A stretch of 59,550 nucleotides of DNA, taken from assembly GCA_011523395.1 (NCBI GenBank), contig WTGW01000006.1, forward strand, positions 1 through 59,550, written 5' to 3'. Under the pieces are notes generated by a model. The model was not told the origin of the DNA, made no database searches, and saw nothing but the letters and a program-made list of their open reading frames with translations. Made by a program: the position numbers and the translations under genes. This document shows, piece after piece, positions 2,430-53,200 of the stretch; the stretch's first letter is position 1, and every line of letters begins with the position of its first letter. The DNA is from Acidimicrobiia bacterium (lineage in GTDB: Bacteria > Actinomycetota > Acidimicrobiia > Spongiisociales > Spongiisociaceae).

Positions 2430-2457
2430 AACTAACAACTAGTAACTAGCAACTAAC
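2430..2457. repeat. Heptamer tandem array (AACTAGC-like, 4 copies), inverted relative to 2155-2189
   Basis: aactaac aactagt aactagc aactaac, approximately the reverse complement of the upstream array. Confidence 0.75.
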
Positions 2458-2523
2458 CTTCCGGCTTGCGGCCAACCCGTCCAGCGACAACAATCGGGGC
2501 CTGTATCGGAACAAGGATGTGTA

Positions 2524-2616
2524 TTGGGCTCGCTGGTTAAGAAACGCCGCAAAAAAATGAGCAAGCACAAGTATCGCAAGCGGATCAAGGCTAACCGCCA
2601 CAAGAAGAAGCAGTAG
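2524..2616 (+). CDS. 30S ribosomal protein bS22 (AURKAIP1/COX24/DUF1713 family), 30 aa, missing from the ORF track
   Basis: TTG start with AAGGA 6 nt upstream; MGSLVKKRRKKMSKHKYRKRIKANRHKKKQ matches the actinobacterial bS22 pattern MGSVIKKRRKRMSK. Confidence 0.9.
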   Translation: MGSLVKKRRKKMSKHKYRKRIKANRHKKKQ

Positions 2617-2677
2617 GTTCGCCTCAGGGGGTACTGGAAGGGCGAGGATGTACTCCCGCCCGGCCAAGTGAATGTTT

Positions 2678-2815
2678 CTAGGGGGTCGACTCCGGCCGGT
2701 AGTAGCGCCGGATCGCCCAGCCGACCACCGCGACGACGAAGCCGCTGGACGGGTTACCGCCGATGATGGCCAGAGCCAGGCCGTAGACGATCGCGACGGT
2801 GCCAAGCATGCGCAT
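2678..2815 (-). CDS. Possible small membrane protein (45 aa) or gene fragment
   Basis: MRMLGTVAIVYGLALAIIGGNPSSGFVVAVVGWAIRRYYRPESTP: two hydrophobic stretches and GC-ending codons; RBS spacing is poor. Confidence 0.35.
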   Translation of the reverse strand: MRMLGTVAIVYGLALAIIGGNPSSGFVVAVVGWAIRRYYRPESTP

Positions 2816-2926
2816 CGTGGTTAGAACAGTGCTCCTCGGGTCATCGGTCTACCTGTGTCGGGATTGTCCGCGGTAACCGGACTAGGGCGCTGGTGCCCCT
2901 ATCGCTCAGCCGATCGAGACGCGAAC

Positions 2927-3772
2927 CTAGCCGGCGCCTGTGACATCCGGCTGCAGCACCATCGCCTTGCCCTCGCCGCGCAGGACAGCAGCGAGAGCTT
3001 CCTCCACCGTGGACACGTGGTCTCGCCGGGCCAGGCTGAGGATTGAGGGGCCGGCGCCCGACAGGCAGGCGTACACAGCTCCTGCTTCGAGGGCGACTTC
3101 CATCAGCCGGGCCGGTACCGGGTAGCTGGCCAGGCGGGCCGTCTCGTGGATCTCGTCGCCGCCGGCGTTGTCGAGTATCTCCTGCGAACCGGTGCGCAGC
3201 CCCTCGATCAGCGCGGTGAGCCGTCCGAGGGTGCGAACCGCCACGTCCAGGGGGACGCAATCCGGTACCACCTTGCGGGAGTCGCTGGTGGGGATCTCGA
3301 AGTCGGGGACCACCAGTACCGGCACCAGGTCGGGTGACAGTGAGTGGTGCACCACCCATCCTTGGGCCACCGACACCAGACCCCCGTATACGGCGGCGGC
3401 GGCGTTGTCGGGGTGGCCCTCCAGGTACTTGACGTACTGGAACAGCTCGTCGTGGGTCGGATCCTTGCCGTTGGCGCGCAAGGCGGCCAGGGTGCCGGCG
3501 GTGAAGGCGGCCGCGCTCGATCCCAGGCCGCTGCAAAGAGGCACGTGGTTGGCGATCTCCATCCGGAGCGGACGGTCGCTCACCGCACGAGCCGCCGCCA
3601 GGACGGCGTCGCGGTCCTCATCACCCAGGTAGGGCTCGGGTCCCACGTGCCGGGTGGACCACGAGCCGGCAACTTCGGCGGTCACCCGGCACCGCAGGTC
3701 GAGCGCCAAAGCCATGGTGTCGAAGCCCGGCCCCAGGTTGGCGGAGGAGGCCGGGGCGGAGGCGGTGCTCAT
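2927..3772 (-). CDS. thrB: Homoserine kinase
   Basis: PASSANLGPGFD, GLGSSAA GHMP motif, EGHPDN, SGAGP. Confidence 0.95.
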   Translation of the reverse strand: MSTASAPASSANLGPGFDTMALALDLRCRVTAEVAGSWSTRHVGPEPYLGDEDRDAVLAAARAVSDRPLRMEIANHVPLCSGLGSSAAAFTAGTLAALRANGKDPTHDELFQYVKYLEGHPDNAAAAVYGGLVSVAQGWVVHHSLSPDLVPVLVVPDFEIPTSDSRKVVPDCVPLDVAVRTLGRLTALIEGLRTGSQEILDNAGGDEIHETARLASYPVPARLMEVALEAGAVYACLSGAGPSILSLARRDHVSTVEEALAAVLRGEGKAMVLQPDVTGAG

Positions 3773-46116: not shown

Positions 46117-46728
46117 ATGGCACCTGTCAACCCTCCATACCTCGCTGCCCACAGCACTATCACTAGGACCCTCGAACGCGTGAAGCTGGCGCCGACACCG
46201 GAGAAATTCAGCCAGGACTTCCTAGCGACCAAGCTCGGCCTCAAGGGTGGCTCGCCTAAGCAGGTGATCCCCTACCTGAAGCGGATTGGATTCCTTCGAT
46301 CCGACGGTACGCCAACCCCTATCTATGAGCGGTTCCGAAACGAATCGCAAAGCGGAGCCGCCGTTGCTGAAGCGATGCGCCACGGTTACCAAACTCTGTA
46401 TGACGTCAACGAGTACCTCCACGAAGCTACCGACGAGGACATTAGGGGTGTAATCCTTCAGGTGACGGGTCAGGAGAAGGGCTCGAGTGTGGTCCGGGCG
46501 ATTCTCGGGTCCTTCAAAGCCTTACGTGCGTTCGCGGACTTCAGCACGCCAACGGTTCCCACGATTGAGTCAACCGAGGAAGACAGCGTGGTCTCGGAGA
46601 CAGCAGAGGGTTCGTCGTTGGCAGGCTTCGGGATTGGTTACACCATCAACCTGCATCTACCTGCAACGTCAGACATTGCGGTGTTCAACGCGATTTTCAG
46701 AAGCCTTCGTGAGAATTTGTTTCGGTGA
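46117..46728 (+). CDS. DUF5343-like protein
   Basis: PEKFSQDFL..LG, LKRIGFL..DGTPT, C-terminal YTINLHLPATSDIAVFNAIFRSL; good RBS (GAGGAAGAGG). Confidence 0.75.
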   Translation: MAPVNPPYLAAHSTITRTLERVKLAPTPEKFSQDFLATKLGLKGGSPKQVIPYLKRIGFLRSDGTPTPIYERFRNESQSGAAVAEAMRHGYQTLYDVNEYLHEATDEDIRGVILQVTGQEKGSSVVRAILGSFKALRAFADFSTPTVPTIESTEEDSVVSETAEGSSLAGFGIGYTINLHLPATSDIAVFNAIFRSLRENLFR

Positions 46729-47321
46729 TGTGTAGTACGAGCCAGGAGAGAGCGCTGCGCCTGTTCGTCATGGCGAACCTGCTGACCGAGTATGCGCTAG
46801 ATCGCGTCGAGACCGAGTACGGCATCGGCCTGGATCGCGACCACGGGCGCGCTGTCTCGACCGAGGAGGATTACTACCCGCAAATCGAGAAGGCGATCCG
46901 AGTTGAGGCTGCGCAGATGGCACCTCACTATGAGGTCTTCTACTCACTTGAGAAGACCATACGGGGTCTTGTCCGCGACGTGCTCGAAGAGGCCGAGGGC
47001 TACGAGTGGTGGCTATCGGACCGAGTGCCCGACCAGATACGAGACGAATGTAAGAAACGGATGCGGCGCGAACTCGACTCCGGTACCACCGTCCGCTCTA
47101 CACATCAGCTCGACTTCAGCACCTTCGGTGAACTCGGTGAGATCATCAAGACAAACTGGGATCTATTCGGTGGTCAGTTCACCAGCAAGAAGGCCGTGGA
47201 AACAGTCATGACGAGGCTCAACGGCCTCAGGGGTCCGATTGCTCACTGCTCGCCTCTTGCTGAGGACGAGATCCTCCGCCTGCAGTTAAGCGTGAGGGAC
47301 TGGTTCAGACTGATGGAGTAG
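46725..47321 (+). CDS. Swt1-like HEPN domain protein
   Basis: FYSLEKTIR, FGELGEII..NW..F and an intact Rx4H motif (RGPIAH); overlaps the upstream stop codon. Confidence 0.8.
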   Translation: MMCSTSQERALRLFVMANLLTEYALDRVETEYGIGLDRDHGRAVSTEEDYYPQIEKAIRVEAAQMAPHYEVFYSLEKTIRGLVRDVLEEAEGYEWWLSDRVPDQIRDECKKRMRRELDSGTTVRSTHQLDFSTFGELGEIIKTNWDLFGGQFTSKKAVETVMTRLNGLRGPIAHCSPLAEDEILRLQLSVRDWFRLME

Positions 47322-47414: not shown

Positions 47415-48908
47415 GTGGCTCGGACTGACCGCCGTGAGGAGGATCTGGTGGCGAGCGTGCTGGTTTTAGGGGCCTCCGGGTATGTGGGGAGCCATCTGAT
47501 CCCGCGGCTGGTGGAGCGGGGGCATGAGGTCCGGGCTGCCGGGCGGCGGCCGGAGGCTCTGGCAGGCCGTGGATGGGACGGCGTCGAGCCGGTCCGCGCT
47601 GACGCTCTCGATCCGGAGTCGCTGGCTGAGGCATTCGAAGGGGTCGATCTCGTCTATTACCTGATCCACTCGATGGCATCGGGGAAGGACTTTCCGGAAC
47701 TGGACCGCCGGGCGGCCGCCCACGTTCGGGATGCTGCGGAACGCGCCGGGGTGGCCCACATCGTCTACCTGGGCGGGTTGCAGCCGCGGGAGGCCGCCTC
47801 GGCGCACCTCGACTCGCGGCGGGAGACCGGCGAGGTGCTCCGATCGGGCTCGGTGCCGGTGACCGAGATCCGGGCCGGGATAGTGGTGGGGCCGGGCTCG
47901 GCGGCCTTCGAAGTCATCCGCGACCTGGTCTACCACTTGCCCGTGATGGTGACGCCCAGGTGGGTGGATTCCATGACCCAGCCGATCGCCCTGGATGACC
48001 TGATCGAGTACCTGCTCCGGCTTCCGGAGACGGAAGGGTCAGAAAGCCGGATACGCGATGTCGGAGGCCCCGAGGCTTTGCGCTACCGGGACATGCTCAC
48101 CGGCTTCGCCCGGGTCATTGGCAAGCGGCTCCTGATCGTTCCCGTGCCTGTCCTCACCCCGCGGCTGTCCTCCTACTGGCTGAACCTGGTCACGGCCGTA
48201 CCCACGAACGTTGCCAGGCCGCTGATAGACGGTCTCAGGCACGACCTGGTCATCGATCCCGGCGCCGACCTGGCCACCTCGATTCCCCTCCCTCTCCACA
48301 CCTATGAAGAGGCGGTGAGCGCGGCCCTCGAGGCCGAGCGGGATGCCGAGATGCCGGCGCGCTGGACGGAAGGCTCGTTCGCGATGCGCGACTACCGCTC
48401 GGACGTGTCCTTCTACAGCCGGGGCGAGCGGGTCGAGCGCATGTGCGCAGCGGAACCGGAGACTGTCTGGGAGGTCGTGTCGTCGATCGGAGGGACGAAC
48501 GGCTGGTATTACGCCGACCCGTTGTGGAACCTGCGCGGCATCCTGGATCGCATGGTCGGGGGAGCCGGCAGGCGCCGCGGTCGCCGCCATCCGACCCGGT
48601 TGCGGGTGGGCGATGCGGTCGACTTCTGGCGGGTGGCGGCCATCGAGCCGGGTCGCCGCCTGACGCTCCTGGCGGAGATGCGCCTCCCCGGCACGGCAAT
48701 CCTCGAGTTCGAGGTGCTGCCCGAGGCAGACGGATCCCGCACGGTCACCGCCGCCTACTTCCATCCGGCGGGTGTTCTGGGCCTTCTCTACTGGTACGCG
48801 TTGTGGCCCATCCACAAGCGCATATTCGCCGGCCTGGCCGATGCCGTAGTCAAGCGCTCGGTGGACCGGATGCCCGCAAACGTACGGGTGGTGCCCCACA
48901 GCAGCTAG
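47415..48908 (+). CDS. NAD(P)-binding SDR-like oxidoreductase with DUF2867 (YbjT-like)
   Basis: GASGYVG, YYLIHSM, GDAVDFWRV, AEMRLPG, GLLYWY; start may be 47448. Confidence 0.85.
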   Translation: MARTDRREEDLVASVLVLGASGYVGSHLIPRLVERGHEVRAAGRRPEALAGRGWDGVEPVRADALDPESLAEAFEGVDLVYYLIHSMASGKDFPELDRRAAAHVRDAAERAGVAHIVYLGGLQPREAASAHLDSRRETGEVLRSGSVPVTEIRAGIVVGPGSAAFEVIRDLVYHLPVMVTPRWVDSMTQPIALDDLIEYLLRLPETEGSESRIRDVGGPEALRYRDMLTGFARVIGKRLLIVPVPVLTPRLSSYWLNLVTAVPTNVARPLIDGLRHDLVIDPGADLATSIPLPLHTYEEAVSAALEAERDAEMPARWTEGSFAMRDYRSDVSFYSRGERVERMCAAEPETVWEVVSSIGGTNGWYYADPLWNLRGILDRMVGGAGRRRGRRHPTRLRVGDAVDFWRVAAIEPGRRLTLLAEMRLPGTAILEFEVLPEADGSRTVTAAYFHPAGVLGLLYWYALWPIHKRIFAGLADAVVKRSVDRMPANVRVVPHSS

Positions 48909-48952
48909 CCGTATTGCCGCCACGGAGACGTGGCCGTTACCCGGAGTGTGTG

Positions 48953-49120
48953 TGAGCCGCCCGGGTTTGCCGGAGAGTGTGATGGATACCCGGATTCGTG
49001 GAGTCGGGCTACTTGAATCTGGTGGTGTGTTGACCCGTGAAGGAGGGGTCTCATGCTGTACCGATATCCACCCCAGTTCCGCCGCAAGGTCCTGGACTCG
49101 GTGGCTGCTGGCAGGTCGCA
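48953..49120 (+). mobile_element. IS3-family left-end relic with truncated OrfA
   Basis: TGAGCCGCCCGGGTTTGCCGGAG resembles IS3/IS51-group inverted repeats; GAAGGAGG RBS then ATG 49053 MLYRYPPQFRRKVLDSVAAGRS (HTH_Tnp_1-like start). Confidence 0.65.
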
Positions 49121-49179
49121 GCCAGTGTGTGAGGACACTCTCCACGCCCGTTGTCGCTCGTTCGGCCGTCGAAGGCCCC

Positions 49180-49209
49180 AAAAAAGACCCGGCCCTAAGT
49201 GGGCCGGGT
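49180..49209 (-). terminator. Intrinsic terminator
   Basis: ACCCGGCCC-ACTTA-GGGCCGGGT-CTTTTTT on the minus strand. Confidence 0.85.
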
Positions 49210-49258
49210 GGGTAACCACTCCTGATACAAACTTACCGGGAGCTAAGCGCTTGTACCC
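49180..49258 (-). ncRNA. Candidate small structured RNA directly 3' of the NYN gene
   Basis: Promoter-like GTGACC-N18-TAAATT with TG extension, GCTCC..GGAGT hairpin, then a 9-bp hairpin and U-tract. Confidence 0.5.
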
Positions 49259-49305
49259 AAATTTAGCACGAGCATTAGCCCGAGGTCACGGGAAACAGCG
49301 TCGGG

Positions 49306-50043
49306 TTACCAGCGTGGTGGACGCCGATAATCGCCCACTGTTCCTGCTAGCTGGCAAGCGTGGAAGTCATTGGCTTCCAGCCGGTACCACCAGTGTCCAC
49401 CGACACCGTCGCCGGGTCTACCGGCCAGATCACCAGCCAGACGGTTGGTGCTCGGGTTGACAACGCCCACCGGAACCCGTTGGCGCGCTAACCGTATCGG
49501 TAGCCGTAGATCACTGTCATTCGAGATCACAATCGCGGCGTCCACTCGGCTGGTCAAGACGTCGGACAGCAGATGGGAGGCAACGTTCACGTCCGTTGCC
49601 TTTTCCTCCTCCCTCAGGTAGGAGACCATGAACCGGGCGTCGCGGACCTCCTTACCGGTGCCGTCCTGCACCATCACCGGCCAACGAGAGGTGTGGATAA
49701 CCGGCCGACCGTTATGGTCGCGTGTCGCCAACAGGCCGGTCTTCCGGCGAGCCGTGAACCTGCCCTCCTCAAGATGATCAAACGAGCGGTTAGCTCTCAA
49801 CGCGGCCACGTACACTTGCTGCCGTCGGTGCTCCGCCGGGTGGAGACTCCCGTCTATGAACGCTGTGCAGTACACCACACGGTGGACCAGCGCACCTCGC
49901 CCCAACCAGTCGGCGCGGCGCGCCAGTATCCGTTGGCTCAGTTGACGCAGGTCAAGCCACCGCCACCCGGATGCAGACCTACCGAAGAGACTTCGGCCGC
50001 CATAGTACAGGTTCAGACCATCGACATACACACCGACCTTCAC
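49306..50043 (-). CDS. NYN domain (LabA/DUF88, PIN-like fold) ribonuclease
   Basis: VYVDGLNLYYG, EEKATDVN, SNDSD: all four catalytic aspartate positions present. Confidence 0.9.
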   Translation of the reverse strand: MKVGVYVDGLNLYYGGRSLFGRSASGWRWLDLRQLSQRILARRADWLGRGALVHRVVYCTAFIDGSLHPAEHRRQQVYVAALRANRSFDHLEEGRFTARRKTGLLATRDHNGRPVIHTSRWPVMVQDGTGKEVRDARFMVSYLREEEKATDVNVASHLLSDVLTSRVDAAIVISNDSDLRLPIRLARQRVPVGVVNPSTNRLAGDLAGRPGDGVGGHWWYRLEANDFHACQLAGTVGDYRRPPRW

Positions 50044-50275
50044 AAACTCTTCTCTCCACCGCTCGATACTCCATCAAATAAACAACCATACAACGGAGCA
50101 GGCACCTCGGCGAGGCTCGCCACGGACGCGATTTCCTCGCCTAGATCGTGGATGCAGATGTGTCGGTGGCGGGTGATAAGTTCGCCTCTGTGGAGGACCA
50201 GCACCGGACACGCGCTCTGAACCGATCGGGCAAGCCGGGTTCGCCCCCGCACTGCTGCCGTCCACCGGAGGCCCT

Positions 50276-53200
50276 GTGGCGCTGCTGATCCACGTCGGGT
50301 CGCATCCCGACGAGTTGGTGGGTGGGTTGTGCGAGATGCTGGCGTCACCCCCGGACGATCCCTTCGTGCAGGAGGTGGTGGCCGTCCCGACGCGCGGTAT
50401 CGAGCGCTGGCTCACCCAGCGGATCGCCTCGGAATTGGCCGACCGGACATCCGGCGACGGGGTGTGTGCCAACGTGGAGTTCCCCTCCCCGCGTCGCCTT
50501 GTCCGGGAAGTGCTACGAGCGGTTCCCGAACTGGCTTCGGCGCTTGATGCCTGGGAGGGACCCGCTCTAACCCGCACATTGGTCTCGGTGGTGGACGATC
50601 ACCTCGATGAGCCGTGGATGTGGCTCCTGGCCCGCTTCATCGACGCGCCGAATGCGGTCGGCACGCTCGGCAACAGCCAGCGCCTGCGGGCGGCCCGCAA
50701 GATATCCGGGCTGTTCACGCGCTACGCCCGGCGCCGGCCTGAGATGGTCCGCGCCTGGATGGAGGGAGAGGATGTCGGGCCCGATGGAGGGGCCCTTCCC
50801 GAGGCGGACGCCTGGCAGGCGCGCTTGTGGCGTTTGGTCCGGGCGCGGATCGGGATCCCCGGCCTGGCGGAGCTGATCCCCTCGGCCCTGGAGCCGGTCC
50901 GGAGCGGTGCGCTCGACCTGGACCTGCCGGAGCGGATCTTCGTGTACGGGCTCACCTCGGTGGACCCGATGGATGTCGAGGTGTTCGAGGCGCTGGCCGC
51001 TACGCGCGATGTACATCTCCACCTGCTCCATCCCTCTCCCGTCCTGTGGCGGGACACGGCGGTCCTCGCCGGACGGGACGGTGTGGATGCCGGTTCGGCG
51101 AGGGGGTCCGATCCCAGCGCGCATCTGCCCCGGCATCCGTTGCTGCGCTCCTGGGCGCAGGAGAGCCGCGAGCTCCAGCTGGTCCTGGCGAGCCGGAGCT
51201 ATACGGGCGAACCATCCGGAGGCCGATCGGGCACCGCGGCCGCCACCCTGCTCGGGCGGCTCCAGCAGGACATCCGCTCCAACATCCTCCCCACGAGGCA
51301 GACCGCTGCAATCGACGCCGCCGGCGACGAGGACCGGTCGGTCCAGATCCACGTCTGTTACGGCGCCCGGAGGCAGGTGGAGGTCCTTCGTGACGCCATC
51401 CTCCATATGCTCGCGGCCGACAGCACCCTGGAACCGCGCGATGTCGTCATCATGACGCCGGACCTCGGCACCTTCGCCCCTCTCCTGGAAGCGGTGTTCC
51501 TCGGCAAGGCCGCCGGTGGGGACCCCGATGCCGGTGGGGACCTCGATGCCGGCGGGGATTCCCTGCCTGATCTGCGCCTCCGGATCGCCGACCGGGCGCC
51601 CGCCGCCACCAACCCACTGGTCCGGTTCGCCGCAACCGTCCTCGACCTGGCCTGCGACCGCCTCGAAGCGGGCACGGTCCGCGAGCTGGTGGCGATGCCG
51701 GTCGTGCGGCGACTGTTCGGCTTCGACGAGGAGACGGCCGACGCGATCGCCACGGTGATCGAGGACACCAACGTGCGGTGGGGCCTCGATGCCGACCACC
51801 GCGCCCGGTGGAACGCCGGCCGGGTGGGGGACCACACCTGGCGGCGCGGGCTCGACCGGGCTCTCTCCGGCGTCTTCTACGCGGACAGCAGCGTCCGCGT
51901 GGTCGGAGCGATCGCCCCCCTCTACGGGGCCGAGGGGCAGGAGGCATTGCCGATCGGGCTATTGGCCCAGATCATGGACCGGATCGTCACGGTCCGGGAG
52001 CTTCTCGGCGGGCCTCGGCCTTACTCCGAGTGGGGGCCGGCCATCGCCGCGGCCGTGCGGCTGCTGGCGGCGCCCGCCTGGGACGACCAGTGGCAGTGGG
52101 GCCAGTTGGAGCGCCTGCTCGAGGAGAGCTTCCCGGGGGTGGAGGCAGGCGGCGACGATCCGCTGCTCGAGCCTGCGGAAGCCCGGTTGGTGGTGGACTA
52201 CTGGTCGGAGGATGTGCCGAGCCCCCTGCACTTCAGGACCGGGGACATCACGGTCTGCACGCTGGTTCCGATGCGTTCGGTGCCCTACCGGGTGGTGTGC
52301 CTGCTCGGTATGGACGACCGGCGCTTCCCCAGGAGCAGCCGGGCCGACGGCGACGACCTGCTGGTCGACAACGAGATCATCGGTGACTCCGACCGCGGCG
52401 CGGAGGACCGCCAGCTCCTCCTGGATGCGGTCATGGCGGCCGGGGACCACCTGGTCGTCACCTACTCGGGGCGTGACCCTCTGACCAACGCCGAGTACCC
52501 GCCGGCGGTTCCCATCGCCGAGTTGGCAGACTTGCTGTCCGCCATGGCGGGGGAGGCCGGTCTCGAGAGCCTCCGGACCCACCATCCTCTGCAGCCGTTC
52601 AGCGAGACCAACTTCGTCCCGGGAAGTCTCGGCGTGCCCGGACCGTGGGGGTTCGACCCCATGCAGTTCCAGGGGTCGCTGGCCGTCCAGCATCGCACCG
52701 GTGGGGAGGCGCCCCATCTCCTGTTGCCCGCCCCCGAGGACGACGTTTTCACGGAGATCCGGCTCGCGGACCTGGGCCGCTTTCTCGAGCATCCCGCCCG
52801 CGAGTTCATCCGCACCAGGCTCGGCTTCATGATCCCGCGCCAGGGAGAGATCCCCGACGACACGGTGCCCACCGAACTCGGTCCCTTGGAGGAGTGGAAG
52901 GTCACCGACCGCTTCCTGGCCGGACTGCTGTCGGGTCATCCGATCGAGTTGCTCGAAGCCCATCAGCGAGCCGGCGACAACCTGCCCCCCGGCGACCTCG
53001 GGCGGGCAGGTCTCGACCGGGCTCGGCAGCGGGCGGTCGAACTGTGGGAGGCCGCCACGGGAGTGGGATACGACCCGGAGCGGCACGAGCAGTTCGCCGG
53101 AGCGGTGCGGGTGGGCGGCCGCACGGTCGAGGGCGTGACAACGGCCGATCCGGGTGCCTCCCGGGTCGACATGGTCACCCCGTCGAGGCTCAAGGGAAAG

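Follow-up and report, generated by a model that had tools for sequence, protein, structure and literature searches.

An NYN nuclease gene and a putative small RNA gene form an apparent mobile two-gene module in Actinomycetota, with the RNA as a candidate antitoxin

We analyzed a 59,550-nt stretch of DNA from an Acidimicrobiia bacterium (GenBank assembly GCA_011523395.1, contig WTGW01000006.1, positions 1 to 59,550 of the forward strand; hereafter the window), focusing on a minus-strand gene for an NYN-domain nuclease and on a small RNA element immediately downstream of it. Comparison with related genomes, metagenome contigs, plasmids and viral contigs indicated that this locus is a self-contained, mobile two-gene module, composed of the NYN nuclease gene and a dedicated, putative small RNA gene. 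In our favored, still tentative reading, the small RNA would be a trans-acting inhibitor (antitoxin) of the NYN nuclease, following a logic like that of type III toxin-antitoxin systems and standing outside the known type III families. The pairing of an NYN gene with a small RNA seems not to have been described so far: the original prediction, made from the sequence of the window, knew of no characterized RNA partner for LabA/DUF88 NYN proteins, and none was listed in Rfam 15 or returned by a literature search whose range left subscription journals and supplements outside.

The nuclease gene (49306-50043, minus strand; TAA stop codon read at 49308-49306) encodes 245 amino acids and was assigned from Pfam, PADLOC, a structural model and conservation. 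The protein matched the Pfam NYN family (PF01936) with 32.3 bits against a cut-off of 24.2 (residues 2-189), and the PADLOC model HEC-09 in two stretches (E 1.2e-25, 88.3 bits); the other Pfam families, NCBIfam and a profile sequence search of solved structures (PDB) returned no match. An AlphaFold (AF2) model with 23 homologues as input reached a mean predicted local distance difference test score (pLDDT) of 81, with residues 98-146 forming a poorly predicted insert, and the top Foldseek fold matches were the LabA-type structure 2qip (E 3.9e-5) and the MARF1 NYN domains 5yaa and 6fdl. In all 23 aligned homologues (51-88% identity), D8, N11, E146, E147, K148, D151, N153, N175, D176, S177 and D178 were invariant, as was the C-terminal H217-W218-W219. 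All catalytic aspartates had been said to be kept, and the invariance of D8, D151, D176 and D178, together with E146/E147, agrees with this. By this alignment the active site appears intact in 23 of 23 homologues, and the model supports an NYN nuclease with a PIN-like fold and conserved acidic active-site residues.

The small-RNA promoter (49260-49289, minus strand), called from sequence and conservation, comprises a -35-like GTGACC (49289-49284), an 18-nt spacer and an extended -10 element, TGcTAAATT (49268-49260), in which the TG of the extension occupies 49268-49267 and the -10 hexamer TAAATT occupies 49265-49260. A generic promoter scan of 48700-50300 found no promoter; the hexamers fit 8 of 12 consensus positions and the scan requires at least 9, so that the call in the window rests on conservation. 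The RNA gene itself, in a long form of about 74 nt (49180-49253, minus strand; 83.6 bits with the covariance model R1), is made up of an AGCGCU box, a hairpin P1, a UUACCCA linker, a hairpin P2 and a U tract. The palindromic 5' box (49246-49251) lies at or just past the predicted start, and its alignment (A1, 12 sequences) has G4, C5, G6 and T8 invariant. P1 (49218-49243) is variable in sequence, with its pairing kept by compensatory changes. The conserved core (49187-49217), defined by the terminator scan and the short-form matches described below, consists of the leader or linker GGUUACCC (49217-49210) and P2 (49209-49187), which folds as A-CCCGGCCC, the loop ACUUA and GGGCCGGG-U and is supported by the terminator scan and by covariation; the U6 tract of the predicted intrinsic termination follows at 49185-49180, as read in the sequence and found by the same scan. 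The promoter, the AGCGCU box, P1, the linker, the 9-bp hairpin and U6 were thus all found on the minus strand where the original prediction had placed them. Two further pairings that it had suggested fared less well: pairing of a 5' TACAAGC with the P1 loop, as a switch or pseudoknot, can form only in the closest clade (by eye, in 5 of the 19 long forms), and pairing of GGGUA with UACCC in a read-through transcript is unconserved.

No Rfam 15 family reached threshold in the window (the best was anti-hemB, with 16.8 bits against a gathering score of 49.5), extending the Rfam search to E 10 added only noise, and for Abi_2 there was no Pfam match at the window locus. No tandem repeats were detected in 48700-50400. 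Two candidate small peptides were rejected: the open reading frame (ORF) at 48905-49219 (minus strand) starts inside the RNA, crosses the terminator and is unconserved, and that at 49053-49460 (plus strand) is regarded as mechanical because it is partly a remnant of an insertion sequence (IS) orfA. With only such mechanical ORFs overlapping it, the RNA element appears to be non-coding.

We then compared the locus within the family of the window (29 genomes). Full-length NYN orthologues (63-100% identity) were present in 8 of the 29 genomes, including that of the window, and NYN remnants were found at three further sites, namely a frameshifted copy (G024) and two C-terminal fragments (G006 and G018). 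The ~75-nt long form lay downstream of all 8 intact orthologues and all 3 remnants, and in all eleven cases the elements came in the same order: a -10 box (TAnnnT), AGCGCU about 7 nt on, a hairpin, UUACCCA, P2 and the U tract. The TAnnnT box held the same position in all orthologues, the CCCGGCCC/loop/GGGCCGGG hairpin was almost invariant, and TTGACA-type -35 boxes were seen in three more distant members. R1 matched 17 copies in 12 of the 29 genomes; 13 of these, counting the tandem second copies of two genomes, adjoin an NYN gene or remnant, and 4 are orphans without NYN. For P1, 10 of 10 pairs were changed on both sides and 85.9% of cells were paired on alignment A5, which was fitted with a covariance model, also holds five short-form rows and leans toward structure; on a plain MAFFT alignment of the P1 region, 6 of 19 pairs were compensatory. 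P1 and the AGCGCU box were found mainly in this family, with the 17 R1 matches there and one copy in locus L130 of a genome collection. The box reads GCGCTAnnnT in the two genomes with tandem copies, resembling the extended -10 of the short-form promoters, and one may speculate that the long form is a product of promoter duplication. As a side observation, the orphan copy in genome G011 (locus L173, ~2446-3170) converges on an ORF whose N-terminus looks PIN/VapC-like by eye.

A shorter form of the RNA proved to be far more widespread. A hairpin-only pattern scan of the genome collection gave at least 119 loci, mostly generic GC-rich palindromes, which were filtered by tblastn and a covariance model. 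Among the matches listed, 22 have an NYN homologue (48-88% identity) beside the hairpin, and these come from Acidimicrobiia, Thermoleophilia/Solirubrobacterales, Microbacterium, Microlunatus and Nonomuraea. Most of the 22 are without P1 or AGCGCU and consist of a -10 box, about 13 nt and the hairpin, with UAYACC or UUACCC in the 6-8 nt before the stem. In four genome loci the unit is inverted, with the RNA running toward NYN and the stop codon of NYN overlapped by the U tract. The short form (~40 nt) was accordingly described as a -10 box, a UAYACC leader, a CCCGG...CCGGG hairpin and a U tract, with R2 as its covariance model. Among the same listed matches, 36 loci scored E <= 1e-5 with R2, of which 22 have NYN adjoining and 14 show no NYN, some of the latter being too short to judge. 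The low-scoring loci without NYN are probably generic terminators, whereas the better copies adjoin an integrase, a transposase, Fic, a HigBA pair or a DUF1156-type methylase (ORFs named by eye). The orphan RNA copies retain promoters.

Metagenome contigs were scanned by NYN protein alignment alone, and the best 80 of at least 574 relatives were examined. Ten of these 80 loci were unassessable, with the NYN 3' end missing or less than 50 nt of downstream DNA. The results showed an R2 match beside the NYN 3' end in 65 of the 70 assessable loci; three more loci showed, by eye, a variant or a copy truncated at the contig end, and the loci without RNA, L269 and L270, hold the most distant homologues (30-32% identity). 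Six of the 65 units were inverted and convergent with NYN, one locus (L266) has an N-terminal NYN stump followed by the RNA, and two loci have a second RNA copy 1.5 kb away. As a control, R2 was run on 15 loci that carry other NYN paralogues from the genomes of the window's family, and none matched. Because the sequences are related, these counts exceed the number of independent events. Taken as they stand, the comparisons suggest that the linkage from NYN to RNA is near-obligate and that the RNA is specific to this NYN subfamily. Of the original proposal, a discrete putative RNA gene is upheld; its conserved core, however, is not the ~75-nt two-hairpin RNA but the ~40-nt 3' part (leader plus terminator-like hairpin), with P1 and AGCGCU as an add-on.

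The same pairing was found on plasmids. NYN protein matches were present in 148 plasmid records, and close homologues (45-55% identity) are carried by small mycobacterial, Rhodococcus, Gordonia and Leifsonia plasmids. On each of the three mycobacterial plasmids inspected, NYN comes directly after parA and a small ORF, and it also lies downstream of parA on the Leifsonia plasmid. All five actinobacterial plasmids inspected carry the RNA, adjoining NYN on those of M. intracellulare, M. abscessus, Rhodococcus and Leifsonia and displaced on the M. avium plasmid pMARIA. On pMARIA (L278, record 21.4-28.3 kb), a 6.8-kb element encoding three tyrosine recombinases, DUF6262 and a transposase is inserted exactly between the NYN stop codon and the RNA promoter; related sequence repeats at both of its junctions, and the RNA and its promoter are intact on the far side. 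Rfam returned nothing near threshold for the M. intracellulare plasmid copy, as for the window. On viral contigs there was one close NYN homologue, with the RNA present, and two contigs with NYN at 37-38% identity carry a variant stem, CCCCG...CGGGG, behind a TTGACG-N17-TATATT promoter.

Two observations concern more distant NYN proteins. The viral contig L320, whose NYN is 24% identical, has a leader and CCCGG-type hairpins with U tracts on both sides of the gene (2205-2243 and 2904-2940; R2 E ~1e-3), which hints that the RNA partner may reach past this subfamily. Distant homologues (26-33% identity, without the C-terminal part) also occur on ColE1-like plasmids of 3.4-9 kb from E. coli, Klebsiella and Serratia, where NYN is one of only two annotated genes and has a 5' leader with three hairpins. 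On the 3461-bp E. coli plasmid L279, a promoter and hairpin after NYN seemed analogous to the RNA unit; this candidate was excluded as replication-origin sequence, which we take to be the RNA I/RNA II region of a ColE1-type origin (ColE1/pBR322).

The 3' end of the RNA is built like an intrinsic (Rho-independent) terminator: the terminator scan detects P2 as 9 pairs, 8 of them G-C, followed by CTTTTTT. One could therefore regard the element as only the intrinsic terminator of NYN, with a promoter-like sequence beside it by chance. The hairpin and U6 lie directly 3' of NYN, the generic promoter scan was negative, and the fold of the 88-nt stretch in the window is only modestly stable for its composition (-36.7 kcal/mol, z = -2.66, equaled by 2 of 200 shuffles), all of which would agree with this. 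Terminator status, however, leaves the promoter, the leader and the orientation independence unexplained, and the comparative data appear to contradict this explanation already; we give it almost no credence.

The covariation of the short-form hairpin was assessed on two alignments. On a plain alignment of 53 distinct sequences, 97.7% of cells were paired and 5 of 9 pairs were compensatory, the observed hairpin score was reached by 0 of 500 shuffles, and sliding the partner by one column lowered the pairing to 57-60%. On a model-fitted alignment, 97.9% of cells were paired and 7 of 9 pairs were compensatory. The stem is 9-10 bp long, its base (A/G-CCCGG...CCGGG-U) is nearly invariant, and the top of the hairpin covaries. 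Because the pairing is kept through substitutions, the RNA structure appears to be under selection. TANNNT was present 10-16 nt upstream of the stem in 46 of 51 distinct short-form loci, compared with 0 and 1 in two control windows further upstream and with a mean of 4.0 (maximum 11) over 1000 shuffles, and a -35-like hexamer was seen in 17 of the 51. The leader (U A n A C C) is conserved on the RNA side also in inverted loci, where it lies outside the NYN mRNA. The RNA was more conserved than the protein, a point that a mere terminator of NYN would not explain: with NYN down to ~45-50% identity, the leader and stem base had barely changed. The fixed -10 spacing, the inverted units, the second copies and the retention after a 6.8-kb displacement indicate that the RNA is probably an independent transcription unit and more than a terminator, and the tandem copies, the orphans and the conserved leader speak against a terminator alone in the same way. 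The view of the original prediction that the locus has more structure than a terminator needs is upheld by the conserved leader, the fixed -10 spacing, the covariation, the occurrence in either orientation, and the tandem, orphan and displaced copies. At the RNA promoter of the mycobacterial-plasmid type (L272, 3745-3790, and three other loci), we also noted an inverted repeat, TTGCGT-N5-ACGCAA, that overlaps the promoter and is preceded by a conserved GGGAGGGGAA; this repeat could be an operator.

An RNA with its own promoter may still matter mainly as part of the NYN mRNA. The hairpin could be a cis element, a 3' stem-loop for self-control, with the separate copy acting as a competitor or being incidental. 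Eukaryotic Regnase-1, to which this arrangement can be likened, acts on stem-loops in 3' untranslated regions (3' UTRs), its own included. Tandem loci lack a terminator between the NYN stop codon and the RNA, so that transcription of NYN should run on to this hairpin and stop there, and since ACCCGG...CCGGGU is self-reverse-complementary, the NYN mRNA of an inverted locus would also end in a near-identical stem. We nevertheless consider a mainly cis role improbable. The leader is always on the small-RNA side, inverted loci included, the -10 box stands at a fixed spacing, and the orphan copies keep their promoters; on pMARIA, the RNA and promoter are retained 6.8 kb away, and the NYN gene there has lost the hairpin in cis. 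The RNA also showed no excess complementarity to the NYN 5' region (-80 to +30; mean z -0.07, n=45, sites scattered), and no conserved complement of the leader was seen by eye in the NYN upstream regions. Antisense control of NYN translation, considered as a separate candidate, is unlikely given this lack of excess complementarity to the NYN start region.

The module behaves as a mobile cassette. In the window it occupies 48909-50128 (no strand assigned), 1220 nt between the end of a DUF2867 gene and the recC side, and the corresponding distance is ~3-35 nt in six genus relatives and ~100 nt in a seventh (G006). The cassette thus appears to be an insertion of ~1.2 kb, for which the site is empty in 7 genus relatives. 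Just past the RNA terminator, at 48952-49120 on the plus strand, lies a remnant of the left end of an insertion sequence, with an inverted repeat, a ribosome-binding site and ~25 codons of orfA; its attribution to the IS3 family is our reading of the orfA N-terminus. This remnant is a dispersed repeat in the genus, whose members hold many more complete copies, and the homology to 7 full copies ends near 49120. Both insertion junctions (48909-48935 and 50100-50128) contain CGCCACGGA, for which a target duplication, a recombination site or chance are all possible. The NYN family is patchy, being present in 3 of 401 genomes at class level versus 8 of 29 in the family of the window.

These features raise the question of whether the palindrome acts as DNA, as a recombination or mobilization site or as an operator, and not as RNA. 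The stem base is a nearly invariant palindrome, the element stands at the insertion edge of a mobile cassette beside an IS remnant, and integrases or recombinases lie near several copies. Against this, compensatory changes preserve the pairing of the upper stem and of P1, conservation extends to the U tract and the promoter spacing, no recombinase accompanies the element consistently, and no clear target duplication was seen at the window junctions. A role as a DNA site therefore appears very unlikely. Across 51 loci no conserved partner protein was found, with no neighbor family in more than 3 of the 51, which fits the earlier statement that no protein antitoxin adjoins the nuclease gene.

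The window neighbors of the cassette are an NAD-binding/DUF2867 gene and recC. We also observed, 2 kb from the cassette, two overlapping genes at 46117-46728 and 46725-47321 (both plus strand) for a DUF5343 protein (E 6e-44) and a Swt1-like HEPN protein (E 8e-10), a pair that matches the PADLOC candidate PDC-M34 A/B (E 1e-46 and 2e-34). Because of this PDC-M34-like pair, the stretch beside recC looks like a small defense island.

For the two-gene module, we propose the following mechanism. An abundant, short-lived RNA would bind the NYN protein in trans and hold the nuclease inactive, being recognized by its 6-8-nt leader (UAYACC/UUACCC) and its stem base. Once the RNA is no longer made, because the plasmid is lost or a phage shuts off host transcription, the nuclease would be freed and would cut cellular or invader RNA, giving a toxin-antitoxin or abortive-infection outcome. 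A toxin with its antidote is suggested because the RNA is kept where NYN is missing or has decayed, while close NYN homologues are almost never found without the RNA. The lack of a partner protein, the patchy distribution, the insertion next to an IS remnant, the position after parA on plasmids and the HEC-09 match give the module a context like that of toxin-antitoxin or defense genes.

Known systems resemble the module in part. Like the type III systems ToxIN, CptIN and TenpIN, it combines a ribonuclease gene with a small non-coding RNA and no protein antitoxin, it is mobile, patchy and found on plasmids or in defense islands, and the logic proposed here, an unstable RNA restraining a stable nuclease, is the same. 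The type III antitoxin, however, is encoded as 34-36-nt repeats in tandem, which the toxin processes, whereas the NYN locus has a single promoter-to-terminator hairpin RNA without tandem repeats; the toxin fold is NYN/PIN-like and not ToxN/AbiQ; and the RNA, which has a promoter of its own, follows or faces the nuclease gene, whereas in type III it lies upstream with an intervening terminator. From the RNA-antitoxin (type III-like) proposal of the original prediction, the NYN-tied RNA gene with its own promoter was retained, and the type III fold, repeat array and gene order were not. VapBC offers another partial likeness, in that a PIN-like metal-dependent ribonuclease is the toxic part, as proposed here. 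In VapBC, which is frequent on actinobacterial and mycobacterial replicons, a protein antitoxin is encoded upstream in the operon; at the NYN loci an RNA gene takes its place, and there is no conserved partner protein. Small RNAs of the 3'-UTR type with an internal promoter, such as DapZ and MicL of enterobacteria, share the terminator of their mRNA, and the tandem-form NYN RNA resembles them in having its promoter just past the stop codon and a terminator in common with the upstream mRNA. It differs from DapZ and MicL in that it also occurs inverted, displaced and orphaned, and in that it has only a conserved 6-8-nt leader and no evident base-pairing seed.

A precedent for a nuclease outside the ToxN family with an associated structured RNA is provided by AbiF. 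The abiF motif is an Rfam family, whereas the NYN locus has no Rfam match, and the proteins differ, NYN against Abi_2/HEPN-like. According to a recent preprint, AbiF (Abi_2) of Clostridioides difficile is neutralized by the abiF-motif RNA RCd22 in cis and in trans by direct contact, and RCd22 also lowers abiF expression (bioRxiv 10.1101/2025.04.15.648962). Unlike RCd22, the NYN RNA is downstream or convergent and has no complementarity to the NYN 5' region. The other relevant comparison is HEC-09, the nearest relative in the catalogues, which the available portion of its source describes as an NYN protein embedded in Hma defense loci, a single-gene candidate that gave no defense in E. coli, and for which that portion mentions no RNA partner (bioRxiv 10.1101/2024.01.29.577857). 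The window protein shares with HEC-09 the model match, the MARF1-like NYN fold, the conserved aspartates and a defense-type context. It differs in lying outside Hma (helicase-methylase-ATPase) or any other multi-gene defense system, with the PDC-M34-like pair 2 kb off and not embedding it. If HEC-09 also needs or carries an RNA partner, its negative defense result would need re-reading.

Several points weigh against the antitoxin reading. HEC-09, as a related NYN candidate, did not protect against the phages tested in E. coli, so far as the available portion of its source reports. The sequence features that define type III are missing here, with no repeat array, an RNA that is downstream or convergent, and an NYN fold. 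The metagenome counts come from the best 80 of at least 574 relatives and are inflated by kinship. The orphan copies could just as well reflect a separate function of the RNA, the near-invariant stem base would also fit a DNA-level site, and a tandem NYN mRNA should end in the same hairpin, so that a cis role is possible.

The alternative that we take most seriously, although we think it unlikely, is that the RNA acts as a positive partner, not an inhibitor, of NYN. It could serve a small ribonucleoprotein as cofactor, scaffold or specificity subunit, or it could be the dedicated substrate or product of the enzyme, for instance one that NYN processes to an active species. The near-obligate linkage, the own promoter, and the conserved leader and stem base fit such a partner equally well; protein-bound RNAs typically combine an invariant recognition element with a hairpin top that varies, and the L320 locus, with its 24%-identical NYN, has similar hairpins on both sides. 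A programmable guide is excluded, since the leader is conserved and not variable. A cofactor useless on its own would be unlikely to persist as orphans or beside degraded NYN, an argument that the small target size weakens, and the position in plasmid partition regions and the mobile-cassette behavior fit addiction or defense better.

NYN (LabA/DUF88) proteins are abundant in bacteria and lack an established function. The 2017 classification of PIN-like domains gives the bacterial NYN proteins as functionally unstudied and states that none of them had by then been examined as a nuclease. The NYN protein family considered here comprises 2813 clusters at E <= 1e-10 and is spread across Actinomycetota, including small mycobacterial plasmids. 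A broader suggestion, which we hold a little more loosely than the antitoxin proposal itself, is that NYN nucleases with a separately transcribed hairpin RNA might represent a large unrecognized class of RNA-controlled toxin or defense modules, in which the ~40-nt RNA would be the antitoxin through its UAYACC leader and CCCGG stem base. The conserved RNA partner offers a testable handle on the function of one large NYN subfamily. Should the RNA prove to be an antitoxin, the range of RNA-antitoxin systems would grow by a new toxin fold and by a minimal promoter-hairpin-terminator RNA; no RNA antitoxin of a PIN-like/NYN toxin would have been known before, and no smaller antitoxin RNA. This would also explain the presence of NYN in the maintenance region of small mycobacterial plasmids and would give Actinomycetota a further candidate abortive-infection system. 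Should the RNA instead be a cofactor, the module would be a new small bacterial ribonucleoprotein. Either way, the RNA is a family missing from Rfam that can be added, and tiny RNA genes that resemble plain terminators are easily missed in annotation.

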